From Candidatus Aenigmatarchaeota archaeon (GTDB lineage Archaea; EX4484-52): DNA of 64,000 nucleotides. Positions 438 through 10,788 of this stretch are shown piece by piece. The translations under genes and the position numbers were made by a program. The stretch is taken from NCBI GenBank assembly GCA_023137195.1, contig JAGLPV010000001.1, forward strand, positions 1 through 64,000. The letters are read 5' to 3'. Positions within the stretch are counted from its first letter, which is position 1; each line of letters starts with the position of its first letter. Under the pieces are notes generated by a model. The model did no database searches. It saw only the letters and a list, made by a program, of their open reading frames with translations, and was not told where the DNA came from.

Positions 438-531
438 ATTATTCATTCCTTTATCTGCTTTTCATTTTGTTCATAAAATAGATAAGAATTACGTCTTTAT
501 ATATTTTCCCCAATAGCTATAGTTATATGTT

Positions 532-618
532 ACTTAACTTTGGCGTTAAGATAAGTTTTGTGAGAGTTAGGGTGAAGCAAACTGTAAGTTTACGTAACCG
601 TTAAATTTTTTGTTATAT
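532..618. other. Degenerate attC-like recombination site (site A)
   Basis: ACTTAAC (532-538) ... GTTATAT (612-618). Aligns with site B: gttaagataagtttt vs gataagagaagtttt, aaactGTAagttt vs aaacctGCAaggttt, and a shared ttgttata end. Long-range pairing is poor. Confidence 0.45.
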
Positions 619-667
619 TCCTCAGAGGGTTGATTTTTAGTGTAATGATGTTTGTCCTCTATCGTTT

Positions 668-832
668 TTTAGGAACTCCCTCTATAAATTAGAAAAATTT
701 GGGAGAGCGAAGCGAACCTCTTAACCTTTGTTAGACGAAATTTTAATTTCGTTGTGGTTTCCGTTGGTCGGTTAAGAGAAGTTTTTCTTTCGAGCGTAGC
801 GAGACTTTATGTCCGTAGGACGGGGGGCTTCC
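668..832. repeat. Structured ~160-bp module, copy 1 (direct repeat of 6321-6490)
   Basis: 668-726 vs 6321-6379 match at 56/59 nt. A second block, ccgttggtcggttaagagaagtttttct, is identical. Downstream GNA hairpins keep their pairing despite sequence changes. Confidence 0.9.
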
Positions 833-863
833 GTTTTTTATAAATTAGCGAGGGACAAATTGA

Positions 864-958
864 ATATAACATCAGGGATAAGAGAAGTTTTTGGCGTAGC
901 CAAAAATTTGGATGGAGAAACCTGCAAGGTTTCGGAATCTCTTATCCTCTTGTTATAC
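864..958. other. attC-like imperfect palindrome (site B)
   Basis: ATATAAC-atcagg-gataagaga ... tctcttatc-ctctt-GTTATAC. Terminal AAC/GTT boxes, inner paired boxes and two internal GNA-triloop hairpins; 95 bp. Confidence 0.65.
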
Positions 959-1228
959 GATTTTTCATAGAAAAACGAGCCAAAGTGCAACGGTTTTTGC
1001 GTAGCAAAAATTGGCGAAGAGTAAAATTTCCATTTCCTGATATATTCTGCGAAGCAGACAATATGTCCGTAGGACAGGGGGGAGTTCCGTTTGTTTTTGT
1101 TTCTGAAAAAGAAGATGGAGGGGGCTTTTATTTTGGTTCTTTTTCTAAAAGAACATTTATGATTGAGAAAATAAGTTATAGATACATTTATAAATATTTG
1201 AGTATATTTGTGGTTATGAGGGGTTAAT

Positions 1229-1375
1229 ATGGAATCAAAAAACATCACATTAAGAGTAAATTCTGAATTATATAATAAATATAGACAATTATGCAAGAAG
1301 AAGGGTTTATTAGTTTCACGACAAGTAGAGATAATGATGGAAGAACAATTAAAGAAAGAGGAAGATCAGGTTTAG
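1229..1375 (+). CDS. Small ribbon-helix-helix (CopG/Arc-like) DNA-binding protein, 48 aa
   Basis: Below ORF-track cutoff. MESKNITLRVNSELYNKYRQLCKKKGLLVSRQVEIMMEEQLKKEEDQV shows the RHH pattern (ITLRV strand, G-turn, SxxVE helix). Preceded by gagggg; stops 3 bp before the helicase ATG. Confidence 0.75.
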   Translation: MESKNITLRVNSELYNKYRQLCKKKGLLVSRQVEIMMEEQLKKEEDQV

Positions 1376-1378
1376 AAT

Positions 1379-4300
1379 ATGGATACTAAACAGACATTGA
1401 ATAAAAAAATAGAATATTGGAAGAAGAAATTAATAGATTTATCCAAAAGAAATAATCTTGTAAATTATCGTTTTACAAAGTCTAAATCCTTAAAAATTAT
1501 TTATCCTAATTTTAAGCAAATCATAGAAGATTTGAATAATGAAAACTCTATACTTTTTTTAAAAAATGAAAGCAAAGAAGCAAAAGAAAGATTATGGTTG
1601 TCTTCTGAAAAAGATTCTGAAGAGAAGAAGAAAGAAGTAGAAGAGGACAGGAAACTAACGACTCTTTATCGTAAAACAAATGAAAATTTTAAAGAATTAG
1701 GAATAAGTACTTGTTTTGTAAGTTTGGGAATCTTGAAATATAAGGAATCTCCCATTTCAGAAATTTATTCGCAAGCTCCTATCTTTCTCTATCCTGTAAC
1801 CTTGAACAGACTTTCCTCTACATCTAAAGATAAACATCGTTTTGAAATTGTTTCAGGTTCAGAAGATATTCAAGTTAATCCTGCATTGGTAGAAAAATTA
1901 TCTCATGATTTTGATATTCATTTACCCGACTTTGAAGAGCAACCGATTGAAGAATATTTAGATTCGATAAAAAAAATAATATCGGGAATGAAAGATTGGA
2001 AAGTTACAGAAGATATTTATATAGATATATTCTCATATCAAAAATATATTATGTTTAAGGATTTAAGTGAACATGATAAACTCTTACATGAAAGTGATTT
2101 AGTCAAAGCATTTATTGGTGATAAAAATGCACTACAAGATGAAATCTCTGAATCTCAAAGAGATGAGTTTGAAGAAGATGCTAATGATGTAGATGTTTTA
2201 CCTGCTGATTCAACTCAAAAAAAGGCGATAGAATTAGCAAAAGCAGGAGTTACCTTTGTTTTACAAGGTCCCCCTGGAACTGGGAAGAGCCAAACAATCT
2301 CAAATATAATTGCTACACTTTTGGAAAAGAAAAAGAAAGTTCTTTTCGTGAGTCAAAAGATGGCTGCTCTTAATGTTGTTCATAAAAGATTAGAAGAGGT
2401 TGGTTTGGGAAGATATTGTTTAAATTTACATAATTACAGAGGAAATAAAAAAGAAATTATTAGACAATTAAATACTGAATTAGAAACTTCTCCAAGAATA
2501 AAAGAAAGTGTTAAAAGATATTCTTTTGCTGACTATATTAATACTCAAAAAGACTTAAATCATTTTTATGACTTTCTATGTAAAAAACATAAGCCTAGAA
2601 CATTATCTATTTATGATATTAGGGGAGAATTAGCAAAACTTCATTCTATCGAAATTCTTGACAAAAATCTTAATGATTTAATTTCTTCTAATGAAGAAAA
2701 GTTTACAATATTATTATCAAAAATTCAAGATTTAGACTTCGTTATTGAAAAAATACCTAGACCAATGGAGAGTATTTATTTTAATTTTAAAACTTCAAAG
2801 AATACAATATTATCAAGAAATAAATTTAAGACATTGGTAGATAGTGCACATCAAATATCAAAAGAGATTTTGGAATTTATCAAAGAAATTAAAAATGAAG
2901 CAAATCTAAACATTCAAACATTAAAACAATTAGAACTATTTTGTGAATTTCATAAAACAGCCAATAAATTAAAAGAGATACCGGAATTTTTTATTTCTGA
3001 AAACTTTGAAGATTATAAAAAGATAATTTCAGATTTAAGTAAAAATATCTTAAAAATTAACGAACTTAAAGAATCTATTGAAGAAATTAAAAAAGGATTC
3101 CCTGAATTTTTCATGTCTGATGATTTCAATGATTATAAAAAAATAATTATCGATTTGAATAAAAATTTAGTGGAGATTAACAACGCTAAACTTAATCTTA
3201 CTCAAAAAGTAATAGAAATGTTTATTGATGAAAATACTGATAATTACGAAAAAACCTTTAAGGAAACTTCATTTTTATCGCGAGTTTTTAATAAAGAATA
3301 CAAAACCGCTAAAAAAGAATTAGAAAGGTTTTCTAAAGAAAAAATAAATCATAATGGTTGGATAAAATTATTTGAGTTAAAGAAGGATTATAAAAAATAC
3401 TTAGATAAGCATTTAAATATAGAAACTCAAAATAAAAACTGTATTAAAAATTTGGGAGATATTTATTCTGAGAATAATTTAAACAATCTCAATAAAAATG
3501 CAGAAGAATTTCAATTTGAAAAATGGTCTGAATTTAAAAAAGAGTTAGCTGAAAAATTAAAAATACACTCCGAGATAGAAACTCAAAATAAAAACGATAT
3601 TAAAAATTTGGGAGATATTTATTCTGAGAATAATTTAAACAATCTCAATAAAAAAGCAGAAGAATTTTCAGAGACATTTAAGAATTCTAAAAATTTATCT
3701 GAGAAATCAGTTAAACTAATTAATTTTTGGTTATCAGAAAAAGAGCGAGAAAATTCATTAAATGAATTAAAAGACAAGATTAAAAATATTGATGATTATT
3801 TATTTAAATCAATATTAAGTGATACTGAAAATCTAGCAGAGATAGAAGACAAAATCCATGAATTTATTGAAAATATAAAATGTTTGGATGATGTTTTAAT
3901 ATTCAAAGAACAATATTCTTCTCTAAACGAAGAGATAAAAGAATTTGTGAAAGAATATTTTAAGGAAAATATAATATCCAAATTAAGTTCTGTATTTTTA
4001 AAAGCATATTATTTGCAATTACTTGAAGAAATTTTAAAACAAAATAACCTGCCCTCCCCCAAAAATAAGGTGGAAATGTTTAGAGAAAAAGATTTTGAAG
4101 TTAGAGATATTAAACGATATAAAATTATGGATTCTATTGAACAAGGTCAGCCCTCTGTAAATTATCATAGTTATGGTGTGAATGATGTTTCTATTTTAAA
4201 AAGAGAAAATGAAAAGAAAAGAAGATTAAAACCAATAAGAGATTTACTTGAAGAGATTCCAGATTTAATATTTTCTTTAAAACCTTGTTTCATGATGAGT

Positions 4301-6187
4301 CCTCTTTCAGTTAGTCAATATATAAATCCCAATAAGATAAAGTTTGATGTAGTTATCTTTGATGAAGCATCACAAATTATGCCCGAAGATGCTGTTTCTT
4401 GTTTGATGAGGTCAAAACAAGCTATTGTTGTGGGAGATACACAACAATTACCACCAACTAACTTTTTTATGAGCCGTCAGGATGATGAAATTGTTGAAGA
4501 AGAAATTGAAGATTTAGAGAGTTTTCTAAGTGAATGTAGTACTAAATTTAGAAGTAAACCTCTTCTTTGGCATTATCGAAGCAAAAATGAACATTTAATT
4601 GCATTTTCAAATAGATTTTTTTATGAACATAGATTGATAACATTTCCTAATGCAAAAATAAAAGATGATTCCGGATTGGACTTTGTTCATGTGAAAACAG
4701 GAGTATATGACCGGGGTAAATCTAGGAAGAATAGAGTTGAAGCAAGAGAAACAGTAAAGAAATACAAAGAATTAAGGGAAAAATTCCCTAAAAAATCAAT
4801 AGGAATTATTGCATTTAGTATCGCACAAGAAAATGCAATTAGAGAAGAATTTAGAGTTGTAGGAATAAATATAGAAGAATCGTTAGATTCTTATCATGAA
4901 GCTTTATTTGTTAAAAATCTTGAAACCGTTCAGGGTGATGAGAGAGATATAATTTTAATAAGTATTGGTTATGGTAAAGATTCTTTTGGAAAATTAAGTT
5001 ATCATTTTGGACCTCTCAATAGAGAAGGGGGTTATAAGAGATTAAATGTTGCTATAACTAGATCAAGATTTAAAACAGTAGTAATATCTTCTATTTCTCC
5101 AGAAGAGTTAGATGAGGATAAAATAAATGTTGATGGAGTTCGTTATTTGAAATATTATCTTGATTATGCAAAAAACAAAGATTTTAATAAATTTTTACAG
5201 ACAACAGAAGGATTAGACTTTGATTCAAGTTTTGAAGAATCTGTTTATGAAGTATTAACAAATGAAGGATTTTCTGTTAGCACCCAAGTTGGCTGTTCGG
5301 GTTATAGAGTAGATTTAGCAATAAAACATCCTAAAAAACCAGGAGTCTATATCTTAGGGATTGAATGTGATGGGGCACAATATCACTCTTCAAGATTTGC
5401 AAGAGATAGAGATAAAATCAGGCAAGGAATTTTAGAAAGTCTTGGTTGGAATATTCATAGAATTTGGTCTGATGATTGGTTGAATAACCGAGAATATGAA
5501 ATAAAAAAGATAAAAGAAAAAGTTGATGCTTTATTAAGGTCAAAGAAAGAAAATTCACAAGATGAATTAAAATTTGAAAAAGTTGAGGATGTAGAAGATT
5601 TTAAAGAAGTTTCTTTAAAGGATAAATATGGTCAATATGAACTTGCTGAATTGCCAAAGTCCGGAACAAAAATAGAATTTGATGGTTATGGTGATATGGT
5701 TTGGGGTGGCAGCAAAGCAAAAGAATTAATGCTGTCTGTTCTGGAAATTGAATCGCCTATTGAAAAAGAATTATTGTATAAAAGAGTTCTTAGTTCATTT
5801 GGAATAAATAAACTCGGTGCGAGGCTAAGGAGAAATTTTGATGATTTGATTAATCAAATGAAAAGAGAATATCCTAATATTTATGTTTCAGGAGAAACGG
5901 TTTCTATAGACCAAATTGAAGGAATTTGTTCTATAAGAATTTCAAAAGAATTTCAAAGACCATTTATTTTAATTCCTAAAGAAGAAATTGGTGGAGCTAT
6001 TGCCGATATTTTAAAAAATACTTTTGGAGCAACAAAAGAAACATTAGTTGCAGATATTGCAAAAGGTATTTTCCATAACAATAGAACTGGTGGGAAAATT
6101 AAAGCGAAGATTGAAGAAGCAATAAAATATTTAGAAAAAGAAAAAATTGTCGATGTTAATGGTGGGAAAATATTTTTGATGAAATAG
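1379..6187 (+). CDS. DUF4011-SF1 (Upf1/DNA2-like) helicase-Vsr-like nuclease-DUF3320 protein; Hhe-like anti-phage defence
   Basis: N-term WKKKLIDLSKRNNL (DUF4011). Walker A QGPPGTGKSQT, DEASQ, GDTQQLPP, VQGDERD, RLNVAITRSR. C-term GIECDGAQYHS...RDRDKIRQGILESLGWNIHRIWS (Vsr/DUF559-like nuclease). Confidence 0.88.
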   Translation: MDTKQTLNKKIEYWKKKLIDLSKRNNLVNYRFTKSKSLKIIYPNFKQIIEDLNNENSILFLKNESKEAKERLWLSSEKDSEEKKKEVEEDRKLTTLYRKTNENFKELGISTCFVSLGILKYKESPISEIYSQAPIFLYPVTLNRLSSTSKDKHRFEIVSGSEDIQVNPALVEKLSHDFDIHLPDFEEQPIEEYLDSIKKIISGMKDWKVTEDIYIDIFSYQKYIMFKDLSEHDKLLHESDLVKAFIGDKNALQDEISESQRDEFEEDANDVDVLPADSTQKKAIELAKAGVTFVLQGPPGTGKSQTISNIIATLLEKKKKVLFVSQKMAALNVVHKRLEEVGLGRYCLNLHNYRGNKKEIIRQLNTELETSPRIKESVKRYSFADYINTQKDLNHFYDFLCKKHKPRTLSIYDIRGELAKLHSIEILDKNLNDLISSNEEKFTILLSKIQDLDFVIEKIPRPMESIYFNFKTSKNTILSRNKFKTLVDSAHQISKEILEFIKEIKNEANLNIQTLKQLELFCEFHKTANKLKEIPEFFISENFEDYKKIISDLSKNILKINELKESIEEIKKGFPEFFMSDDFNDYKKIIIDLNKNLVEINNAKLNLTQKVIEMFIDENTDNYEKTFKETSFLSRVFNKEYKTAKKELERFSKEKINHNGWIKLFELKKDYKKYLDKHLNIETQNKNCIKNLGDIYSENNLNNLNKNAEEFQFEKWSEFKKELAEKLKIHSEIETQNKNDIKNLGDIYSENNLNNLNKKAEEFSETFKNSKNLSEKSVKLINFWLSEKERENSLNELKDKIKNIDDYLFKSILSDTENLAEIEDKIHEFIENIKCLDDVLIFKEQYSSLNEEIKEFVKEYFKENIISKLSSVFLKAYYLQLLEEILKQNNLPSPKNKVEMFREKDFEVRDIKRYKIMDSIEQGQPSVNYHSYGVNDVSILKRENEKKRRLKPIRDLLEEIPDLIFSLKPCFMMSPLSVSQYINPNKIKFDVVIFDEASQIMPEDAVSCLMRSKQAIVVGDTQQLPPTNFFMSRQDDEIVEEEIEDLESFLSECSTKFRSKPLLWHYRSKNEHLIAFSNRFFYEHRLITFPNAKIKDDSGLDFVHVKTGVYDRGKSRKNRVEARETVKKYKELREKFPKKSIGIIAFSIAQENAIREEFRVVGINIEESLDSYHEALFVKNLETVQGDERDIILISIGYGKDSFGKLSYHFGPLNREGGYKRLNVAITRSRFKTVVISSISPEELDEDKINVDGVRYLKYYLDYAKNKDFNKFLQTTEGLDFDSSFEESVYEVLTNEGFSVSTQVGCSGYRVDLAIKHPKKPGVYILGIECDGAQYHSSRFARDRDKIRQGILESLGWNIHRIWSDDWLNNREYEIKKIKEKVDALLRSKKENSQDELKFEKVEDVEDFKEVSLKDKYGQYELAELPKSGTKIEFDGYGDMVWGGSKAKELMLSVLEIESPIEKELLYKRVLSSFGINKLGARLRRNFDDLINQMKREYPNIYVSGETVSIDQIEGICSIRISKEFQRPFILIPKEEIGGAIADILKNTFGATKETLVADIAKGIFHNNRTGGKIKAKIEEAIKYLEKEKIVDVNGGKIFLMK
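3419..3667 (+). repeat. Intragenic duplication: 93-bp copies at 3419-3511 and 3575-3667
   Basis: IETQNKNxIKNLGDIYSENNLNNLNKxAEEF occurs twice; 3 nt differences; period 156 bp. Confidence 0.9.
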
Positions 6188-6320
6188 AGACGCTTCAAAT
6201 AAATTTCTTTTTCGCAGAAAAAGACTATCTGTCCGAAGGACTAAAAGCCCCCTCTTAATAAATTTCGAGCAACGAAGTTGTGAGTCAATATGTGCGTGGC
6301 ACTGCATTATATTTTTTTCG

Positions 6321-6490
6321 TTTAGGAACTCCCCATATAAATTAGAAAAATTTGGGAGAGCGAAGCGAATCTCTTAACCATAGTTATAGAAAGTGCGAAG
6401 CATTTTCCTGTCGTCCCGTTGGTCGGTTAAGAGAAGTTTTTCTACGAGGCGAAGCCGAGACAATCTGTCCCGAAGGGACGAACTCCCCCC
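6321..6490. repeat. Structured ~160-bp module, copy 2
   Basis: Direct repeat of 668-832; lies between the helicase stop and the recombinase. Confidence 0.9.
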
Positions 6491-6521
6491 TTTTTTATTT
6501 AAGGAAATGGAAATTTTATTG

Positions 6522-6571
6522 CGTATAACAAGAGATTAAACGGAATAAATTACGTTTAATCTACCGATATA
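6522..6571. other. Recombinase-proximal candidate attachment site (attI-like)
   Basis: CGTATAAC-aag-agattaaacg...cgtttaatct. 6522-6534 is the exact reverse complement of 947-959, and 6524-6543 matches the reverse complement of 598-617 at 17/20. Confidence 0.5.
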
Positions 6572-6615
6572 GGATGTTATACTTACTTTTATATATTTAT
6601 TTGCAAATAAAAATA

Positions 6616-7434
6616 ATGGATTTGACTGAAAGTGAAATTTTTTTATTAAAATTAAGAAGAGAGATGGAAATAAGAAATTTTTCTTCAAAAACAGTCAAAA
6701 CATATCTTTATTTCGTGGAAAAGTTTCTCGAATATTTGGGGGATTCGGAACTTTGTGAAGAGACAGTTAAAAATTATATGCAAGAACAAATAATGAAAAA
6801 AGAGCCATCTACGGTTTCCTTAAATCTTAGTGCTATAAAATTCTTTTTTAATAAAGTGTTGTATAAAAATATAGACGTTCCTAATCCAAGGAAAAATAAG
6901 AAAATTCCTGAAGTTTTGACTGTTGGGGAAGTCGGAAGATTGATAGGCGCTATAGATAACATCAAGCACAGGTTGATGATAAAAATGCTTTATGGCTGTG
7001 GGTTAAGAGTGAGCGAACTTGTAAATCTGAAAAAATCGGATTTGAATTTTGAGGAAAATCTTATTCATATACGGCTTGCAAAAGGGAGAAAGGACAGGTT
7101 TGTCAAGATTCCTGAGTCCGTCAAAGAACAACTGGAAAGCTATTGTAAACTTGAGGAAAAGGACACATTATTTTTATCGCAAAGAGGAGGGAAATTATCA
7201 ACCGCAACAATACAAAAAATAATCAAAAATTTTTCAAAAAAGGCAGGAATAAAAAAGAATATTTCTCCTCACACATTAAGGCACAGCTTTGCTACACATC
7301 TGCTTGAAGCAGGAATAGATTTGAAGATTATACAAAAATTGCTTGGTCATTCAGACATCAAGACTACGCAGATATATCTGCATGTTTCCAATCAATTGAT
7401 AAGGAATGTGAAAAGTCCGCTTGATTATTTGTAA
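6616..7434 (+). CDS. Tyrosine recombinase, XerA/integron-integrase-like
   Basis: Catalytic R (GLRVSE), K (AKGRKDR), HxxR (HTLRH), LGH, Y (TTQIY). N-term RNFSSKTVKTY SAM-like domain and C-term VKSPLD resemble IntI, but there is no IntI-specific insertion before box II. Start moved to MDLTE, downstream of TATA-like ttttatata (6587-6595). Confidence 0.92.
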   Translation: MDLTESEIFLLKLRREMEIRNFSSKTVKTYLYFVEKFLEYLGDSELCEETVKNYMQEQIMKKEPSTVSLNLSAIKFFFNKVLYKNIDVPNPRKNKKIPEVLTVGEVGRLIGAIDNIKHRLMIKMLYGCGLRVSELVNLKKSDLNFEENLIHIRLAKGRKDRFVKIPESVKEQLESYCKLEEKDTLFLSQRGGKLSTATIQKIIKNFSKKAGIKKNISPHTLRHSFATHLLEAGIDLKIIQKLLGHSDIKTTQIYLHVSNQLIRNVKSPLDYL

Positions 7435-7504
7435 ACAATGTGCAGATAGTATAGAAAACTATTTTAAGATAAACATATATTATATCTAATATATAAAAAA
7501 GAAA

Positions 7505-9109
7505 ATGGTAATTTCAAAAGACATAATCAAACTCGTCAAAACATATAATAAAGCTAATCTCATAAACATATTGAACCATATACAGCAAAAAGAAGGTTTT
7601 TTATCTGAAAAGAATATTGAGTATATTTCCAAAGAACTATCCATGCCAATGGCTAGAATTTATGAAATGGCAAGTTTCTATTCTTTTTTCTCCTTTGAAA
7701 AAAAAGGAAAACATACAATCCGAATTTGCAACAGCCCTTCCTGCTACATGAACAATTCTGCCAATATATTAAAGGCAATAGAAAAGACAATAGGGCTAAA
7801 ATCAGGAGAGTATAATAACATATTTGATTTTGAAATTGCACAGTGCATTGGTTGCTGTGACGAATCACCCGCTATGCTTGTAGATGGTATCTCATACACA
7901 AAACTAACCAATGCAAAAGTCATAGAAATACTAAACAACATAAAATCAGGAAAAAAAACAAAGAGCATTAATTATACAGGAAAACCACCAGGAGAACACG
8001 CAATGAATATACTCCATAAAACAAACTTCATGTCATTGAAAAAAGCAAAATCAATGAGTCCTGAGAATATAATAAAAAAAGTAAAAAAGTCAGGGCTTAC
8101 AGGCAGGGGAGGGGCTGGTTTTTCTACTGGTCTGAAATGGGAATTTGTGAATAAGACAGGAAAAGAAGGCACATTAATATGCAATTTTGATGAAGGAGAA
8201 CCGGGAACATTCAAAGATAAATTTATTGTAATCAATAACACAGAAACATTAATAGAAGGAATTGCCATTGCTTCTTATGCATTGAAATGCAGGCATGCTT
8301 ATATTTATATGAGAGGAGAGTATGATTATCTCAAAGGCAAACTACAGGAGACAATAAACTCTTCAAAAAAAAATCTGGATGGTTTGGAGATAGAAATAAT
8401 CGAGGGAGCTGGTGCTTACATCTGCGGCGATGAGACAAGCATAATGAATTCTATTGAAGGCAAGGCAGGACACCCGAGACACAAGCCGCCATATCCTGCC
8501 CAGAGTGGATTATGGCAGACACCGACTGCAATAAACAATGTCGAAACACTAATCAACACAGCTCTTTTATTTTGTGAAGGATGGAACAATGATTCAAGAT
8601 TATTTTGCGTTTCAGGGGACGTTGAAGAGGGAGGAGTATTTGAAGAAAAGACAGGACTCTCATTTAAGGAACTTATTGGCAAGGCAAAGCCTAAGGAAAA
8701 AGTAAAAGCACTTTTCCTTGGGGCATCAGGTGGATGCATTCCATACGATGCAAATTCCTGTTTTGATTACGATAAAATAAAGCAAAAAGGAGCATCTCTT
8801 GGCTCGTGTACAATAATTGTTGTGGATAAGAATACAGGCATTGTAGAGTTATGCAAAAATATAACGGCTTTTTTTGTCCATGAAAGTTGTGGAAAATGTA
8901 CTCCATGTAGGGAAGGAAATTATCGGATACTGGAGTTGCTTGAAAAGATTACATCCGGCGAGGGAACAAAACAGGACTTGCTGTTGATTGAGGAATTGTG
9001 CGATTTTATTAAGACAACTTCTTTTTGTCCTTTGGGTCAGTCTTCATGTAATAACCTATCAGGGGCATTAAAATATTTTAGGAGAGAATTTGAGAGATTA
9101 TGCAAATAA
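7505..9109 (+). CDS. NuoE/HydC-NuoF/HydB fusion, diaphorase subunit of [FeFe]-hydrogenase
   Basis: N-term [2Fe-2S] CNSPSC...CIGCC. FMN/NADH motifs GLTGRGGAGF, CNFDEGEPGTFKD, GAGAYICGDET. [4Fe-4S] ESCGKCTPCREG...CPLG. Confidence 0.92.
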   Translation: MVISKDIIKLVKTYNKANLINILNHIQQKEGFLSEKNIEYISKELSMPMARIYEMASFYSFFSFEKKGKHTIRICNSPSCYMNNSANILKAIEKTIGLKSGEYNNIFDFEIAQCIGCCDESPAMLVDGISYTKLTNAKVIEILNNIKSGKKTKSINYTGKPPGEHAMNILHKTNFMSLKKAKSMSPENIIKKVKKSGLTGRGGAGFSTGLKWEFVNKTGKEGTLICNFDEGEPGTFKDKFIVINNTETLIEGIAIASYALKCRHAYIYMRGEYDYLKGKLQETINSSKKNLDGLEIEIIEGAGAYICGDETSIMNSIEGKAGHPRHKPPYPAQSGLWQTPTAINNVETLINTALLFCEGWNNDSRLFCVSGDVEEGGVFEEKTGLSFKELIGKAKPKEKVKALFLGASGGCIPYDANSCFDYDKIKQKGASLGSCTIIVVDKNTGIVELCKNITAFFVHESCGKCTPCREGNYRILELLEKITSGEGTKQDLLLIEELCDFIKTTSFCPLGQSSCNNLSGALKYFRREFERLCK

Positions 9110-10788
9110 TAATTGATGGAAGGGAACTTAGGGCAAAGTTGGGAGAGACTATATTGGAAGTAGCCTTAAAGAATGGAATCAATATCCCTCATCTTTGTTA
9201 TGATCCTGACCTGCCGCCGGAGGGAAATTGTAGGATGTGCATCTGTGAAGTTAATGGTAATGTAATGACGACATGCAATACTGTAGTTGAGAACAACATG
9301 ATTGTCGAGACAGAGACAAAGAGGATTAACGAATTAAGGAAAATAAATATCGAGCTTCTTTTGTCTAAGCACAAGGCAGAAGAATCTTCTCATCCCAATC
9401 AATTACTGGATTTGAAAAAAAAACACAGGATTGAAAACAATGGTCGGTTTGAAAAAAAACACAAAAACAAAAAAGATAAATCCTCTTATTCTATAGTTCG
9501 GGATGATTCCAAGTGTATATTATGTGGGAGATGCATAAATAAATGCAGTCAAACACAGGCAGTCAATGCAATTTGTTTTGTAGGTAGGGGAAAAGATATA
9601 AAAGTAGGTACAGCATTTGAACATGCTCTGTCCGAGACAGCATGTGTCGATTGTGGACAATGTGTAATGACTTGTCCTTCAGGAGCGCTCAGGGAAGTGG
9701 ACGATATCGCAGGGGTTAAAGAAGCAATTGACAACAAGTCAAAATACGTTGTTGTGCAAACTGCGCCAGCCATAAGGGTCTCTATTGGAGAGGAGTTTGG
9801 TCTGCCGGTAGGGACAATTGTTACAAAAAAACTGGTTTCTGCTTTGAGAAAGACAGGTTTTGACAAGGTTTTTGATACAGATTTTGGAGCGGATTTGACT
9901 ATTGTTGAAGAGGCATCTGAGTTTATTGCGAGGGCAACAAGTGGCGGCGTTCTGCCCATGTTTACATCCTGCTGTCCTGCATGGGTCAAATATGTAGAGC
10001 ATTTTTATCCGGAGTTTATACCTAATCTTTCCTCGTGCAAATCTCCTCACCAGATGGTTGGGGCCGTAACAAAAACATATTATGCAAAAAAGCTAAAATT
10101 AAACCCAAAAGATATTGTAGTAGTAAGCATTATGCCATGCACTGCAAAGAAATTTGAATGCAAAAGACCGGAGATGAAATCAGATGGCTTTGTAGATGTT
10201 GATTTTGTATTAACTACAAGAGAAGCTGCGCGATTCATAAAACAAGAAGGCGTTGATTTAATCGGGGCGAATGAGGAAGAATACGACAATCCTTTAGGGG
10301 AATCCACTGGTGCCGGTGTTATTTTTGGTGCGACAGGAGGAGTGATGGAGGCAGCATTGAGGACAGCTTATGAATACGTCACAGGAAAAGGAGTGACTGA
10401 TCTTGAATTCAACCAGATAAGAGGTTTGCCGGGCATTAAAGAAGGTAGCATTACAATGAAGGGTACTGAGTATAATTTTGCTGTGGTGCACGGTCTTGCA
10501 AATGCAAAAGTGTTGATGGAAGAGATAAAGGCAGGAAAAAGCAAATATCATTTTATTGAAGTTATGGCATGTCCGGGGGGGTGTATTGGTGGTGGTGGTC
10601 AGCCCATTCCGACAAACGATCAGATAAGGAAGAAAAGGATAGAAGCACTGTATCGTGAAGACAGGAACCTGCCATTTAGAAAGTCACATGAGAATCCATC
10701 AATAAAGAAATTGTATGATGAATTTTTGAAAAAACCATTGGGGAAAAAATCCCACCAGTTATTGCATACAAAATATACCAAAAGATAA
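9100..10788 (+). CDS. hydA: [FeFe]-hydrogenase catalytic subunit, group A
   Basis: H-cluster motifs L1 TSCCPAW, L2 MPCTAKKFE, L3 EVMACPGGCIGGGGQP. N-term [2Fe-2S] and 2x[4Fe-4S] (CILCGRC, CVDCGQC...CP). C-term small-subunit region SHENP...LLHT. Confidence 0.97.
   Translation: MQIIIDGRELRAKLGETILEVALKNGINIPHLCYDPDLPPEGNCRMCICEVNGNVMTTCNTVVENNMIVETETKRINELRKINIELLLSKHKAEESSHPNQLLDLKKKHRIENNGRFEKKHKNKKDKSSYSIVRDDSKCILCGRCINKCSQTQAVNAICFVGRGKDIKVGTAFEHALSETACVDCGQCVMTCPSGALREVDDIAGVKEAIDNKSKYVVVQTAPAIRVSIGEEFGLPVGTIVTKKLVSALRKTGFDKVFDTDFGADLTIVEEASEFIARATSGGVLPMFTSCCPAWVKYVEHFYPEFIPNLSSCKSPHQMVGAVTKTYYAKKLKLNPKDIVVVSIMPCTAKKFECKRPEMKSDGFVDVDFVLTTREAARFIKQEGVDLIGANEEEYDNPLGESTGAGVIFGATGGVMEAALRTAYEYVTGKGVTDLEFNQIRGLPGIKEGSITMKGTEYNFAVVHGLANAKVLMEEIKAGKSKYHFIEVMACPGGCIGGGGQPIPTNDQIRKKRIEALYREDRNLPFRKSHENPSIKKLYDEFLKKPLGKKSHQLLHTKYTKR

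Follow-up and report, generated by a model that had tools for sequence, protein, structure and literature searches.

The window analysed here, a stretch of 64,000 nucleotides from a Candidatus Aenigmatarchaeota archaeon, carries an array of attC-like sites and repeated modules next to the gene of an Xer-type tyrosine recombinase (Table 1). A cassette spanning 862-6522 bears an anti-phage helicase, and a short non-coding cassette (530-861) lies to its left. The 1602-aa cargo protein has anti-phage relatives in ProA, Hhe and PDC-S37, scoring 1122.8 bits against the NCBIfam ProA model (below its cut-off of 1500), 746.5 bits against Hhe and 1161.9 bits against PADLOC PDC-S37. The small ORF (48 aa) that heads the cassette looks, by eye only, like a ribbon-helix-helix protein. 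The best-conserved site is composed of a 5' box (ATATAACA), a spacer, an inner stem (GGATAAGAG/CTCTTATCC), two hairpins and a 3' box (TGTTATAC), and the module B tail behind it has a G-run and a T-run at its end. Module A copy 1 opens with an invariant block (…GGGAGAGCGAAGCGAAC CTCTTAACC), followed by a variable hairpin and by CCGTTGGTC GGTTAAGAG AAGTTTTTC; next are two more hairpins (GCGTAGC and GTCC-GTA-GGAC) and, behind them, a G-run, a T-run and TAAATTAG. In loci L023, L022, L026 and L162, too, module A separates the xer gene from the last site. The post-cargo module matches L120 with 92% identity over 104 nt, and in other genomes homologous pieces stand just 5' of B-core sites. The proximal site has a 5' box (GTATAACA, 6523-6530), a palindrome at 6533-6562 (AGATTAAACGGA-ATAAAT-TACGTTTAATCT, 12-6-12 with one mismatch) and the same 3' box as the best-conserved site (6575-6582).

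Table 1. Features of the array and its recombinase gene. Hairpins are those listed by the earlier note; R1 is a covariance model of the site, and the wide loci are defined in the text.
Feature	Position	Strand	GNA hairpins contained	Evidence
Degenerate attC-like site, B-core type	530-619	+	579-591 (second hairpin of the site; loop T-GTA-A)	R1 37.8 bits, E 5.6e-8
Module A, copy 1	668-848	+	707-713, 794-800, 811-821	Three-copy alignment, 78% mean identity; blastn matches
attC-like site (B-core), best conserved	862-959	+	888-906 (loop C-GTA-G), 917-933 (loop T-GCA-A)	R1 113.1 bits; covariation
Module B tail	960-1100	+	994-1010, 1046-1058, 1064-1076	77% identity to contig C45 copy; partial copies in other MAGs
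48-aa ORF, cassette head	1229-1375	+		ORF list; 0 family matches
Cassette cargo, 1602-aa DUF4011 / SF1 helicase / MTES_1575 nuclease / DUF3320 protein	1379-6187	+		Pfam
Post-cargo module	6188-6320	+	6206-6224, 6231-6241, 6270-6280	blastn matches in 12 of 80 wide loci
Module A, copy 2, recombinase-proximal	6321-6500	+	6360-6366, 6394-6402, 6448-6456, 6467-6479	blastn; three-copy alignment
Recombinase-proximal site	6523-6582	+		Sequence; not an R1 match
Xer-type tyrosine recombinase, array-linked clade	6616-7434	+		Pfam Phage_integrase and SAM_4; tree; conserved catalytic residues

The earlier note had listed 16 hairpins with GNA triloops in the non-coding flanks. All 16 are present on the + strand with perfect stems and G-N-A loops; three have stems of only 2 bp (707-713, 794-800 and 6360-6366), and two are closed by a T-A instead of a C-G pair (579-591 and 917-933). 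Scanning both flanks (447-1228 and 6188-6573, 1168 nt in total) for triloops with stems of at least 2 bp gave 21 GNA against 3 TNC, 14 of the GNA loops being C-G closed. Over the whole window the two types are balanced, with 343 GNA and 305 TNC at the same stem length, 91 and 95 at stems of at least 3 bp, and 29 and 28 among C-closed loops; 14 of these 29 C-closed GNA loops are packed into 1.8% of the window. The genome-wide count is also even (558 GNA, 545 TNC). In ordinary intergenic DNA such hairpins are much sparser. In intergenic-like DNA of the same genome, with the four array flanks excluded, C-closed GNA or TNC hairpins (stem of at least 3 bp) occur at 0.22 per kb per strand, which predicts 0.26 on the + strand of the 1168 nt, where 11 were observed (Poisson P ~8e-15). 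The strand bias is shared by relatives: among 270 perfect triloop hairpins (stem of at least 4 bp) in 198 distinct sites, 186 are GNA and 3 are TNC. The GNA loops are closed by T-A in 117 cases and by C-G in 66, and GNRA-type tetraloops are rare (GAAG 4, GCAA 3, GAGA 3). The stability of d(GNA) loops depends on the closing pair (PMC3201870).

Two inverted boxes (…TAAC / GTTA…) frame the core site of about 95 nt, which also has an unpaired spacer, an inner stem with covariation and two GNA-triloop hairpins. It has the architecture of attC sites (boxes, spacer, inner stem and variable terminal structure; ~57-141 nt); sites of the order set measure 74-137 nt and those of the wide set up to 186 nt, and the first hairpin is of variable length. 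Anchoring 160 sites on AAC and GTT gave the consensus boxes 5' ATAT-AAC-A and 3' T-GTT-ATAT, which fit the RYYY and RRRY letters of RYYYAAC/GTTRRRY only partially. In an unbiased MAFFT alignment of 15 sites, pairing holds in 91.8% of cells, sliding the partners leaves 52.5% at most, and compensatory change is seen in 13 pairs against at most 7. Larger alignments of 67 and 137 distinct sites, both fitted to the covariance model, have 91.7% and 92.0% of cells paired against at most 52.4%, with compensatory change in 33 of 33 and 30 of 33 pairs. In the 67-site alignment this includes all nine pairs of the inner stem, and the AAC/GTT pairs are retained in 61-64 sites. The inner stem has one optional bulge column on its 3' side in the model alignment and, by eye, a 3-nt bulge in the C45 copy; no conserved extrahelical or bulged base was noticed. 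The earlier proposal that selection acts on the fold of one strand is borne out by this pairing together with the 186 to 3 loop count.

Covariation supports a fold and not its chemistry, and the sites could also be genes for, or parts of, a structured RNA made from the GNA strand, for instance a small regulatory or recombinase-associated RNA under selection at the RNA level. Consistent with this, the model-fitted alignment has 97 G.T (G.U) pairs against 33 A.C pairs, and at one position G.T is nearly invariant (63 of 66). The GNA strand folds more stably than its complement in 172 of the 198 sites with DNA parameters and in 190, a larger asymmetry, with RNA parameters. The unpaired junction sequences TTTGGATGGAG and CGGAAT are strongly conserved across lineages, which is compatible with RNA too, and TATA-like motifs were noticed by eye within modules A and B. 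Against an RNA, the terminal loops are nearly always d(GNA)-type triloops closed by C-G or T-A, G.T and A.C pairs are equal (11 each) in the 15-site alignment that was not fitted to the model, and ORFs lie mainly on the other strand. Runs of T5-T6, which are archaeal termination signals, stand within the first hairpin of most sites, and transcription from a promoter at the 5' box would begin inside the inner stem, leaving box and stem unpaired. Rfam has no matching family: at the gathering threshold it found two tRNAs only in the 64 kb, and relaxing the limit to E 10 added for the flanks just three microRNA/lncRNA matches of chance level. The chemistry of the loops speaks for DNA as the folded molecule, but the G.T pairs and RNA folding favour the same strand; we consider a structured RNA unlikely.

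Covariance searches found such sites in 31 of 42 related genomes of the phylum (R1 matches) and in 80 loci of other DPANN-labelled MAGs (the wide set). All sites of a contig share one orientation in 20 of 21 multi-hit contigs (manual tally), and sites are likewise co-oriented in 9 of 9 loci and in all 35 multi-hit loci of other lineages. Over 50 intervals in 18 loci, one of which ends at the hand-placed proximal site of the window, the median spacing is ~950 nt, with 40 below 1.6 kb and 46 below 4 kb, as in integrons, whose co-oriented sites cluster less than 4 kb apart. Between the sites there are mostly single ORFs, 46 of them opposite to the GNA strand and 21 on the same strand. In the 16 wide loci that hold an xer gene, it is always at the 3' end of the GNA strand, and the same is true of eight further cases (the window, L023, L022, L026, L058, L041, G029:C16 and G041:C78). 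The analogy with the integron 'bottom' strand, drawn in the earlier note, is upheld both by this 5'->3' direction towards the recombinase and by the location of the ORFs. Two observations speak against an integron-like system: L041 has one weak site (27.5 bits) beyond its xer gene, and 64 of the 80 wide loci have no xer in the retrieved stretch. The recombinase gene itself may face either way.

The recombinase of the window belongs to the Xer family (257.9 bits against NF040815 XerA, cut-off 220), and its catalytic R-K-H-R-H-Y residues (R131, K156, H219, R222, H245 and Y254) are among the invariant columns. The longest ORF runs from 6574, and the ATG at 6616 is preferred by alignments. Its score against the IntI model TIGR02249 is 216.2 bits, below the cut-off of 265, and the match is split in two stretches, the first covering model positions 1-180 and the second, in relatives, starting at 237. 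The recombinase has no insertion relative to the housekeeping XerA and lacks the IntI-specific domain around patch III, which in IntI reads extrahelical bases; none of the 42 genomes has an IntI above the TIGR02249 cut-off. A canonical integron is not supported. In the tree the array-linked xers form one clade, multi-copy and not following taxonomy, apart from the one-per-genome housekeeping clade, and within the search made every family with this clade has the modules as well. Xer/dif resolution or IMEX via a single housekeeping Xer does not fit the membership of the window xer in this multi-copy clade; the C45 xer is a housekeeping one. A box-plus-palindrome layout, a putative primary site, adjoins array-linked xer genes in the window and many other loci, and the motif AAATTGAA-nnTAAC stands 5' of both ordinary sites and the xer-proximal palindrome. 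At the junction, homology stops right after …AAC-A.

Such a recombinase, ordinary by sequence, might act on duplex DNA. The sites would then be recombination or insertion sites (dif-like, IMEX-like or cruciforms) used without a single-stranded intermediate, with a real link to the recombinase and with GNA loops that merely ease cruciform extrusion or are a by-product. The classical 12-6-12 palindrome of the proximal site and the C45 array, 1.6 kb from the housekeeping xerA, agree with such a mechanism. However, it leaves unexplained why the base pairs of three stems covary while their sequence is free and why the loops differ so strongly between strands (186 to 3), and the array-linked xers separate from the housekeeping clade; we judge it improbable. 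Selfish or structural repeats unrelated to the recombinase (REP/MITE-like elements moved by a single-strand transposase, or terminator/insulator modules in variable islands) are very doubtful, since high copy number in the community, shuffled, mosaic sub-modules, the many sites without a recombinase in the stretch seen and terminator-like hairpin and T-run ends have to be set against strict co-orientation inside arrays, constant polarity towards xer genes (16/16), a 5' box motif common to ordinary and xer-proximal sites, and no match to the Y1 HUH (IS200/IS605 or RAYT) transposase PF01797 in the source genome G000 (84.8% complete; control matches in 6 of 14 genomes).

The explanation we prefer, with roughly an even chance of being right, is that the hairpins belong, as structural elements, to a cassette system that resembles an integron but does without IntI, runs on a Xer-type recombinase and uses its sites in the form of folded single-stranded DNA. 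The data establish the fold, its strand bias, the arrays, the polarity and the link to a distinct Xer clade; recombination of the sites, single-stranded DNA as substrate and the position of the crossover are inferred. The GNA strand would fold when single-stranded during replication, repair or DNA uptake, and its two boxed stems would then imitate both arms of a duplex Xer core site. Single-strand exchange by the recombinase would take place at the 5' box (…AA|C), in the manner of IntI on attC bottom strands and of XerCD on the folded attP of the CTX phage. Triloops of d(GNA) type, closed by C-G or T-A, would nucleate and stabilise the fold of the GNA strand only, and in this way set the polarity. 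Arrays are ordered as co-oriented sites between short cassettes, followed by the proximal site and recombinase gene at the 3' end. Counting against an integron-like system, at least 9 of the 16 hairpins fall outside the modelled site (in module A, the tail and the 6188-6320 module), the window cassette is atypical in its length of 5.6 kb and in having its genes on the GNA strand, and one shared gene stands in opposite orientation to its neighbouring site in L025 and L147.

Among the closest known systems are integrons, such as the archaeal integrons and CALINs described by Ghaly et al. 2022 (PMC9668308). Both systems have imperfect inverted repeats with outer boxes near RYYYAAC…GTTRRRY, spacer, inner stem and a terminal hairpin that varies, arrays in which co-oriented short cassettes carry mostly one ORF each, defence-type cargo, ORFs opposite to the folding strand, and a tyrosine recombinase with a special site where the folding ('bottom') strand points. 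Integrons differ in that here a Xer-type recombinase lacking the IntI-specific domain is present, its gene may face either way, the sites have two terminal hairpins, conserved junctions and GNA triloops with no conserved extrahelical bases seen, and extra conserved modules (A and the tail) lie between sites. The proposed use of a folded single strand by an unmodified Xer-type recombinase resembles CTX/IMEX. In CTX phage integration XerCD acts at dif on single-stranded DNA, a hairpin of which mimics the duplex core site, and exchange of one strand gives polarity. CTX, however, uses the host housekeeping XerCD and chromosomal dif and concerns phage genomes, whereas here there are a separate multi-copy Xer clade, its own proximal site and long chromosomal arrays. 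The pdif modules of Acinetobacter plasmids, XerS/difSL and XerH/difH are duplex sites without covarying hairpins or strand-specific loops; they share gene modules bounded by Xer-type sites and a recombinase gene adjoining a palindromic 11-6-11-like site, while pdif sites alternate in orientation and the present ones are co-oriented. REP/BIME with RAYT and IS200/IS605 ends are likewise intergenic hairpins read on one DNA strand in high copy number; in the present case, the source genome gave no match to a Y1 transposase, and the ~95-nt sites have two boxes and form arrays oriented towards a tyrosine recombinase.

Integrons provide the standard example of recombination that uses folded single-stranded DNA, and the question of their descent from Xer-like recombinases is open. 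It is possible, though we hold it only tentatively, that Xer-driven, integron-like cassette capture at GNA-stabilised folded single-stranded sites is widespread in DPANN-type archaea (perhaps also in some CPR bacteria), either as a surviving relative of an Xer-based integron ancestor or as an independent invention, and that integron surveys overlooked it because it has no IntI. Archaeal cassette systems may be undercounted wherever a survey depends on IntI and on the attC model built for bacteria. If true, Xer-linked attC-like arrays would be a natural experiment on the minimum needed for single-strand site recognition, would show the movement of defence genes among ultra-small archaea and would supply compact, polar recombination sites.

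Community data also speak for the cassette system. Module depth is 5-25 times that of the cassette, and community contigs join module copies across it (682->6336 and 1079->6322); the first joint lies inside a 34-nt repeat, so that either homologous recombination or an artefact of assembly could account for it. Products of recombination with a precise junction were not seen, and a search of viral contigs with a 30-nt pattern found no sites. The sister array on C45 carries a type II R-M system, and this cargo and the anti-phage helicase are of the kind typical of integron cassettes. The helicase cassette also occurs, with 82% identity, behind a different site variant in another MAG.

The genome, a 1.42 Mb assembly of 57 contigs with a G+C content of 35% and 84.8% completeness, is archaeal, because its TBP matches lie above cut-off. 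An earlier note had claimed 16 G-N-A (GNA) triloop hairpins, all on the + strand, in the non-coding flanks. All 16 are present with perfect stems, three of them being 2-bp mini-hairpins and two being closed by T-A. Counted over the whole window with stems of at least 2 bp, GNA triloops (343) and the TNC triloops of the complement (305) show no strand bias, and the C-closed triloops number 29 and 28, respectively. The two flanks (447-1228 and 6188-6573), which make up 1.8% of the window, hold 14 of its 29 C-closed GNA hairpins, with 21 GNA against 3 TNC triloops; the strand bias in the window is local, confined to these two non-coding flanks. Intergenic-like DNA of the same genome carries 0.22 C-closed GNA/TNC hairpins (stem of at least 3 bp) per kb per strand, from which 0.26 would be expected on the + strand of the 1168 nt of flanks, where 11 were observed. 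The note had named two patterns as evidence against its claim, hairpins no less frequent in ordinary intergenic DNA and hairpins equally frequent on the two strands; neither was found, and for this reason the hairpin observation stands.

The most conserved piece of the window, 862-959, has a four-helix fold supported by 15 copies from 11 genomes aligned with MAFFT. In the outer stem the 5' box ATATAACA pairs with the 3' box TGTTATA; a short unpaired spacer comes next, and the inner stem (GGATAAGAG/CTCTTATCC in the window) encloses two hairpins, those at 888-906 and 917-933. In this alignment 91.8% of the cells are paired and 13 pairs show compensatory change, against at most 52.5% and at most 7, respectively, when the partners are slid. 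R1, a covariance model of this attC-like core site, identified 68 sites in the order's loci and 138 in those of other lineages, with pairing of 91.7% and 92.0% and compensatory change in 33/33 and 30/33 pairs, values that come from alignments fitted to the model and are therefore biased towards it. Within the window R1 finds only 862-959 (113.1 bits) and a degenerate site at 530-619 (37.8 bits), both inside the region of the finding; hairpin 579-591 belongs to the degenerate site, as the second of its hairpins. A dif-like duplex site of 11-6-11 layout at 529-556 (TGTTACTTAAC-TTTGGC-GTTAAGATAAG) was rejected, R1 assigning it to the 5' part of the degenerate site. A further rejected candidate was 665-1100 as a single 420-nt structured molecule closed by GGAACTCCC/GGGGGAGTTCC; its folding z-scores are similar (-4.1 to -6.0) for both strands and both parameter sets, and relatives keep its sub-modules separately. 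In 54 sites whose second hairpin is of the AAATC/GATTT variant, a stretch spanning its 3' arm and the conserved CGGAAT junction could instead fold as AGATT-TCGG-AATCT, a hairpin of 4-5 bp with a TCGG loop.

GNA is a sequence rule for unusually stable DNA triloops, and T-GNA-A loops carry a stability bonus too. A set of 198 distinct sites contains 270 perfect triloop hairpins (stem of at least 4 bp), including 186 GNA and 3 TNC; the GNA triloops are closed by T-A in 117 cases and by C-G in 66, and GNRA-like tetraloops are rare. In PMC3201870 the stability of GNA triloops in DNA is described as dependent on the closing pair. DNA parameters favour folding of the GNA strand over that of its complement in 172 of the 198 sites. 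The near-exclusive use of triloops, the internal T5-T6 runs of most sites, the lack of any Rfam match at E values as high as 10 and the position of most ORFs on the complementary strand weigh against a structured RNA from the GNA strand. In favour of an RNA, the fold asymmetry is greater under RNA parameters (GNA strand better in 190/198 sites) and the unpaired junction sequences are strongly conserved. The excess of G.T over A.C pairs, which would also suit an RNA, is 97 to 33 in the model-fitted alignment but 11 to 11 in the unfitted one.

Regarding their distribution, R1 sites occur in 31 of the phylum's 42 genomes, a set that is the same here at the level of order and class, and in none of the five genomes of family f2. 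Sites that share a contig point the same way in 20 of the 21 contigs with at least two listed hits (manual tally), the exception having hits 14 kb apart, and likewise in 9/9 further loci and in 35/35 multi-hit loci of other lineages. The median spacing in 18 loci is ~950 nt, and 40 of the 50 intervals, one of which relies on the window's hand-placed proximal site beside the recombinase gene (xer), are below 1.6 kb. Between sites, 46 ORFs of at least 60 aa lie opposite the GNA strand and 21 on it, and two intervals have no such ORF. Integron cassette arrays have this same anatomy. The window's own cassette is at the large end, with 5.6 kb and genes on the GNA strand. All-against-all megablast of the loci revealed cassettes shared between L025 and L031, L025 and L147, and L131 and the window, one of them in inverted orientation, and no shared cassette with both boundaries at a box. 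Another MAG has the helicase cassette too (82% nucleotide identity), but there it follows a different variant of the site.

A 30-nt degenerate pattern of the site core matched 106 stretches in a collection of species-representative genomes and none in viral contigs. The MAGs bearing it are labelled Woesearchaeota, Pacearchaeota, Nanoarchaeota, Aenigmatarchaeota, Micrarchaeota, Altiarchaeota and others, with a few bacterial labels (CPR and other). An identical 3096-nt contig is present in two MAGs (L117 and L180) under one bacterial and one archaeal label, so the taxon labels of some site-bearing records are unreliable, and the occurrence of sites in bacteria is tentative.

The recombinase gene of the window encodes a Xer-type protein, matching NF040815 (archaeal XerA) with 257.9 bits (cut-off 220). 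With the integron integrase (IntI) model TIGR02249 it stays below cut-off (216.2 bits; cut-off 265), the match falling into two stretches and leaving out the IntI-specific part, and no IntI match above cut-off was found in the 42 genomes. The catalytic residues are conserved, and the array-linked recombinase carries no insertion when compared with housekeeping XerA. In a tree built from 35 Xer proteins of the order, two groups separate. The first has one member per genome, follows the families, includes the gene of contig C45 and is the housekeeping clade. The second is multi-copy, does not follow taxonomy and contains the window gene and the array neighbours in L023, L022, L026, L058 and L051; in one search, which covered several incomplete genomes, it was found only in the module-bearing families f1, f4, f6 and f8, and not in f2, f3 and f7. 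The array-clade proteins of L041 (G001:C82) and L042 (G027:C156), from different families, are nearly identical (branch lengths 0.05 and 0.15), which suggests recent transfer between families.

Among 80 wide loci, all 16 that hold xer have it at the 3' end of the GNA strand, as do the window, L023, L022, L026, L058, L041, G029:C16 and G041:C78, with the gene itself oriented either way; L041 has one additional weak site beyond xer. The layout between the last site and xer is conserved, consisting of AAATTGAA-nnTAAC-A and then a palindrome of ~11-6-11. The first motif is common to this proximal layout and the 5' side of ordinary sites, and homology between the two stops directly past …AAC-A, where an integron-like bottom-strand crossover would probably fall.

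Features of the window at and around the helicase cassette
Feature	Position	Strand	Remarks
Start of hsdM (type I methylase)	3-446	minus	left of the region
Module A, ~175 nt	668-848; 6321-6500		three copies, one on contig C45; 78% mean identity
Module B, ~240 nt	860-1100		also on contig C45; 77% identity
48-aa ORF			between the flanks; no family match
1602-aa DUF4011 / helicase / MTES_1575 nuclease protein			between the flanks; relative of anti-phage ProA, Hhe and PDC-S37
Proximal layout, GTATAACA	6523-6530
Proximal palindrome, AGATTAAACGGA-ATAAAT-TACGTTTAATCT	6533-6562
Proximal layout, TGTTATAC	6575-6582
Tyrosine recombinase gene	6616-7434		right of the second flank; hydrogenase genes follow

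Overall, the evidence shows a conserved one-strand fold, DNA-type loops, integron-like arrays, a fixed polarity to a distinct Xer clade and a shared proximal box. We give about an even chance to an IntI-independent, integron-like system with putative action on folded single-stranded DNA. A structured RNA is improbable, and recombination of the sites as duplexes or cruciforms slightly more so; the proximal palindrome speaks for the latter and the strand asymmetry of the loops against it. Repeats unrelated to the recombinase, against which the fixed polarity to xer speaks, are the least probable reading. Archaeal integrons, with IntI genes and attCs, are known from 75 of 6718 genomes searched with standard tools (PMC9668308). 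There is no mention of Xer-linked arrays or of GNA loops in the text of that paper, among whose CALINs some of the present sites may already be counted. No account of attC-like arrays linked to Xer, or of sites with GNA loops, in DPANN emerged from our literature search.

The non-coding modules A and B again flank a defence cassette on contig C45, composed of a pair of methylases, a type II restriction enzyme and a protein of 1199 aa that belongs to no known family. This second array (L001, G000:C45:30000-44000) has its modules and type II R-M cassette at 1161-1967 and 3600-10700, and its end is 1.6 kb away from the xerA of the housekeeping clade; a 458-aa ORF occupies the gap. By blastn, 24 of 41 related genomes contain pieces of the modules, in many cases with several on a single contig, and module A tends to sit between the last site and xer (window, L023, L022, L026 and L162). 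Contigs from four metagenome DNA runs, all of one study, cover the modules at 5-25 times the depth of the cassette and link module copies across it. Loose contig ends at 944, 976 and 1022 in these runs were rejected as crossover points, being module sequence variants.

The helicase gene has two in-frame internal tandem duplications, at 2971-3190 (length 100 nt, spacing 120, identity 71%) and 3364-3667 (length 148 nt, spacing 156, identity 81%), and some metagenome contigs have joints in the duplicated part. Strain variants of the hsdM start (1-470) in two metagenome runs have 13-14 differences per 470 nt and continue into unrelated sequence beyond 470, so the island right of hsdM differs between close strains. 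A recurring end-piece, read by eye at 808-848, 1062-1100, 6229-6262 and 6465-6500, consists of a GTCC-GNA-GGAC hairpin, a G or C run and a T-run, often followed by the TATA-like TAAATTAG; it terminates modules A and B, is also present after the cargo gene and may be a terminator/promoter unit. Finally, some xer genes at array ends (G029:C16:6992-7750, L160 466-1253 and L116 3734-4529) are broken by a single in-frame TGA or by changes of frame; arrays may outlive their recombinase.
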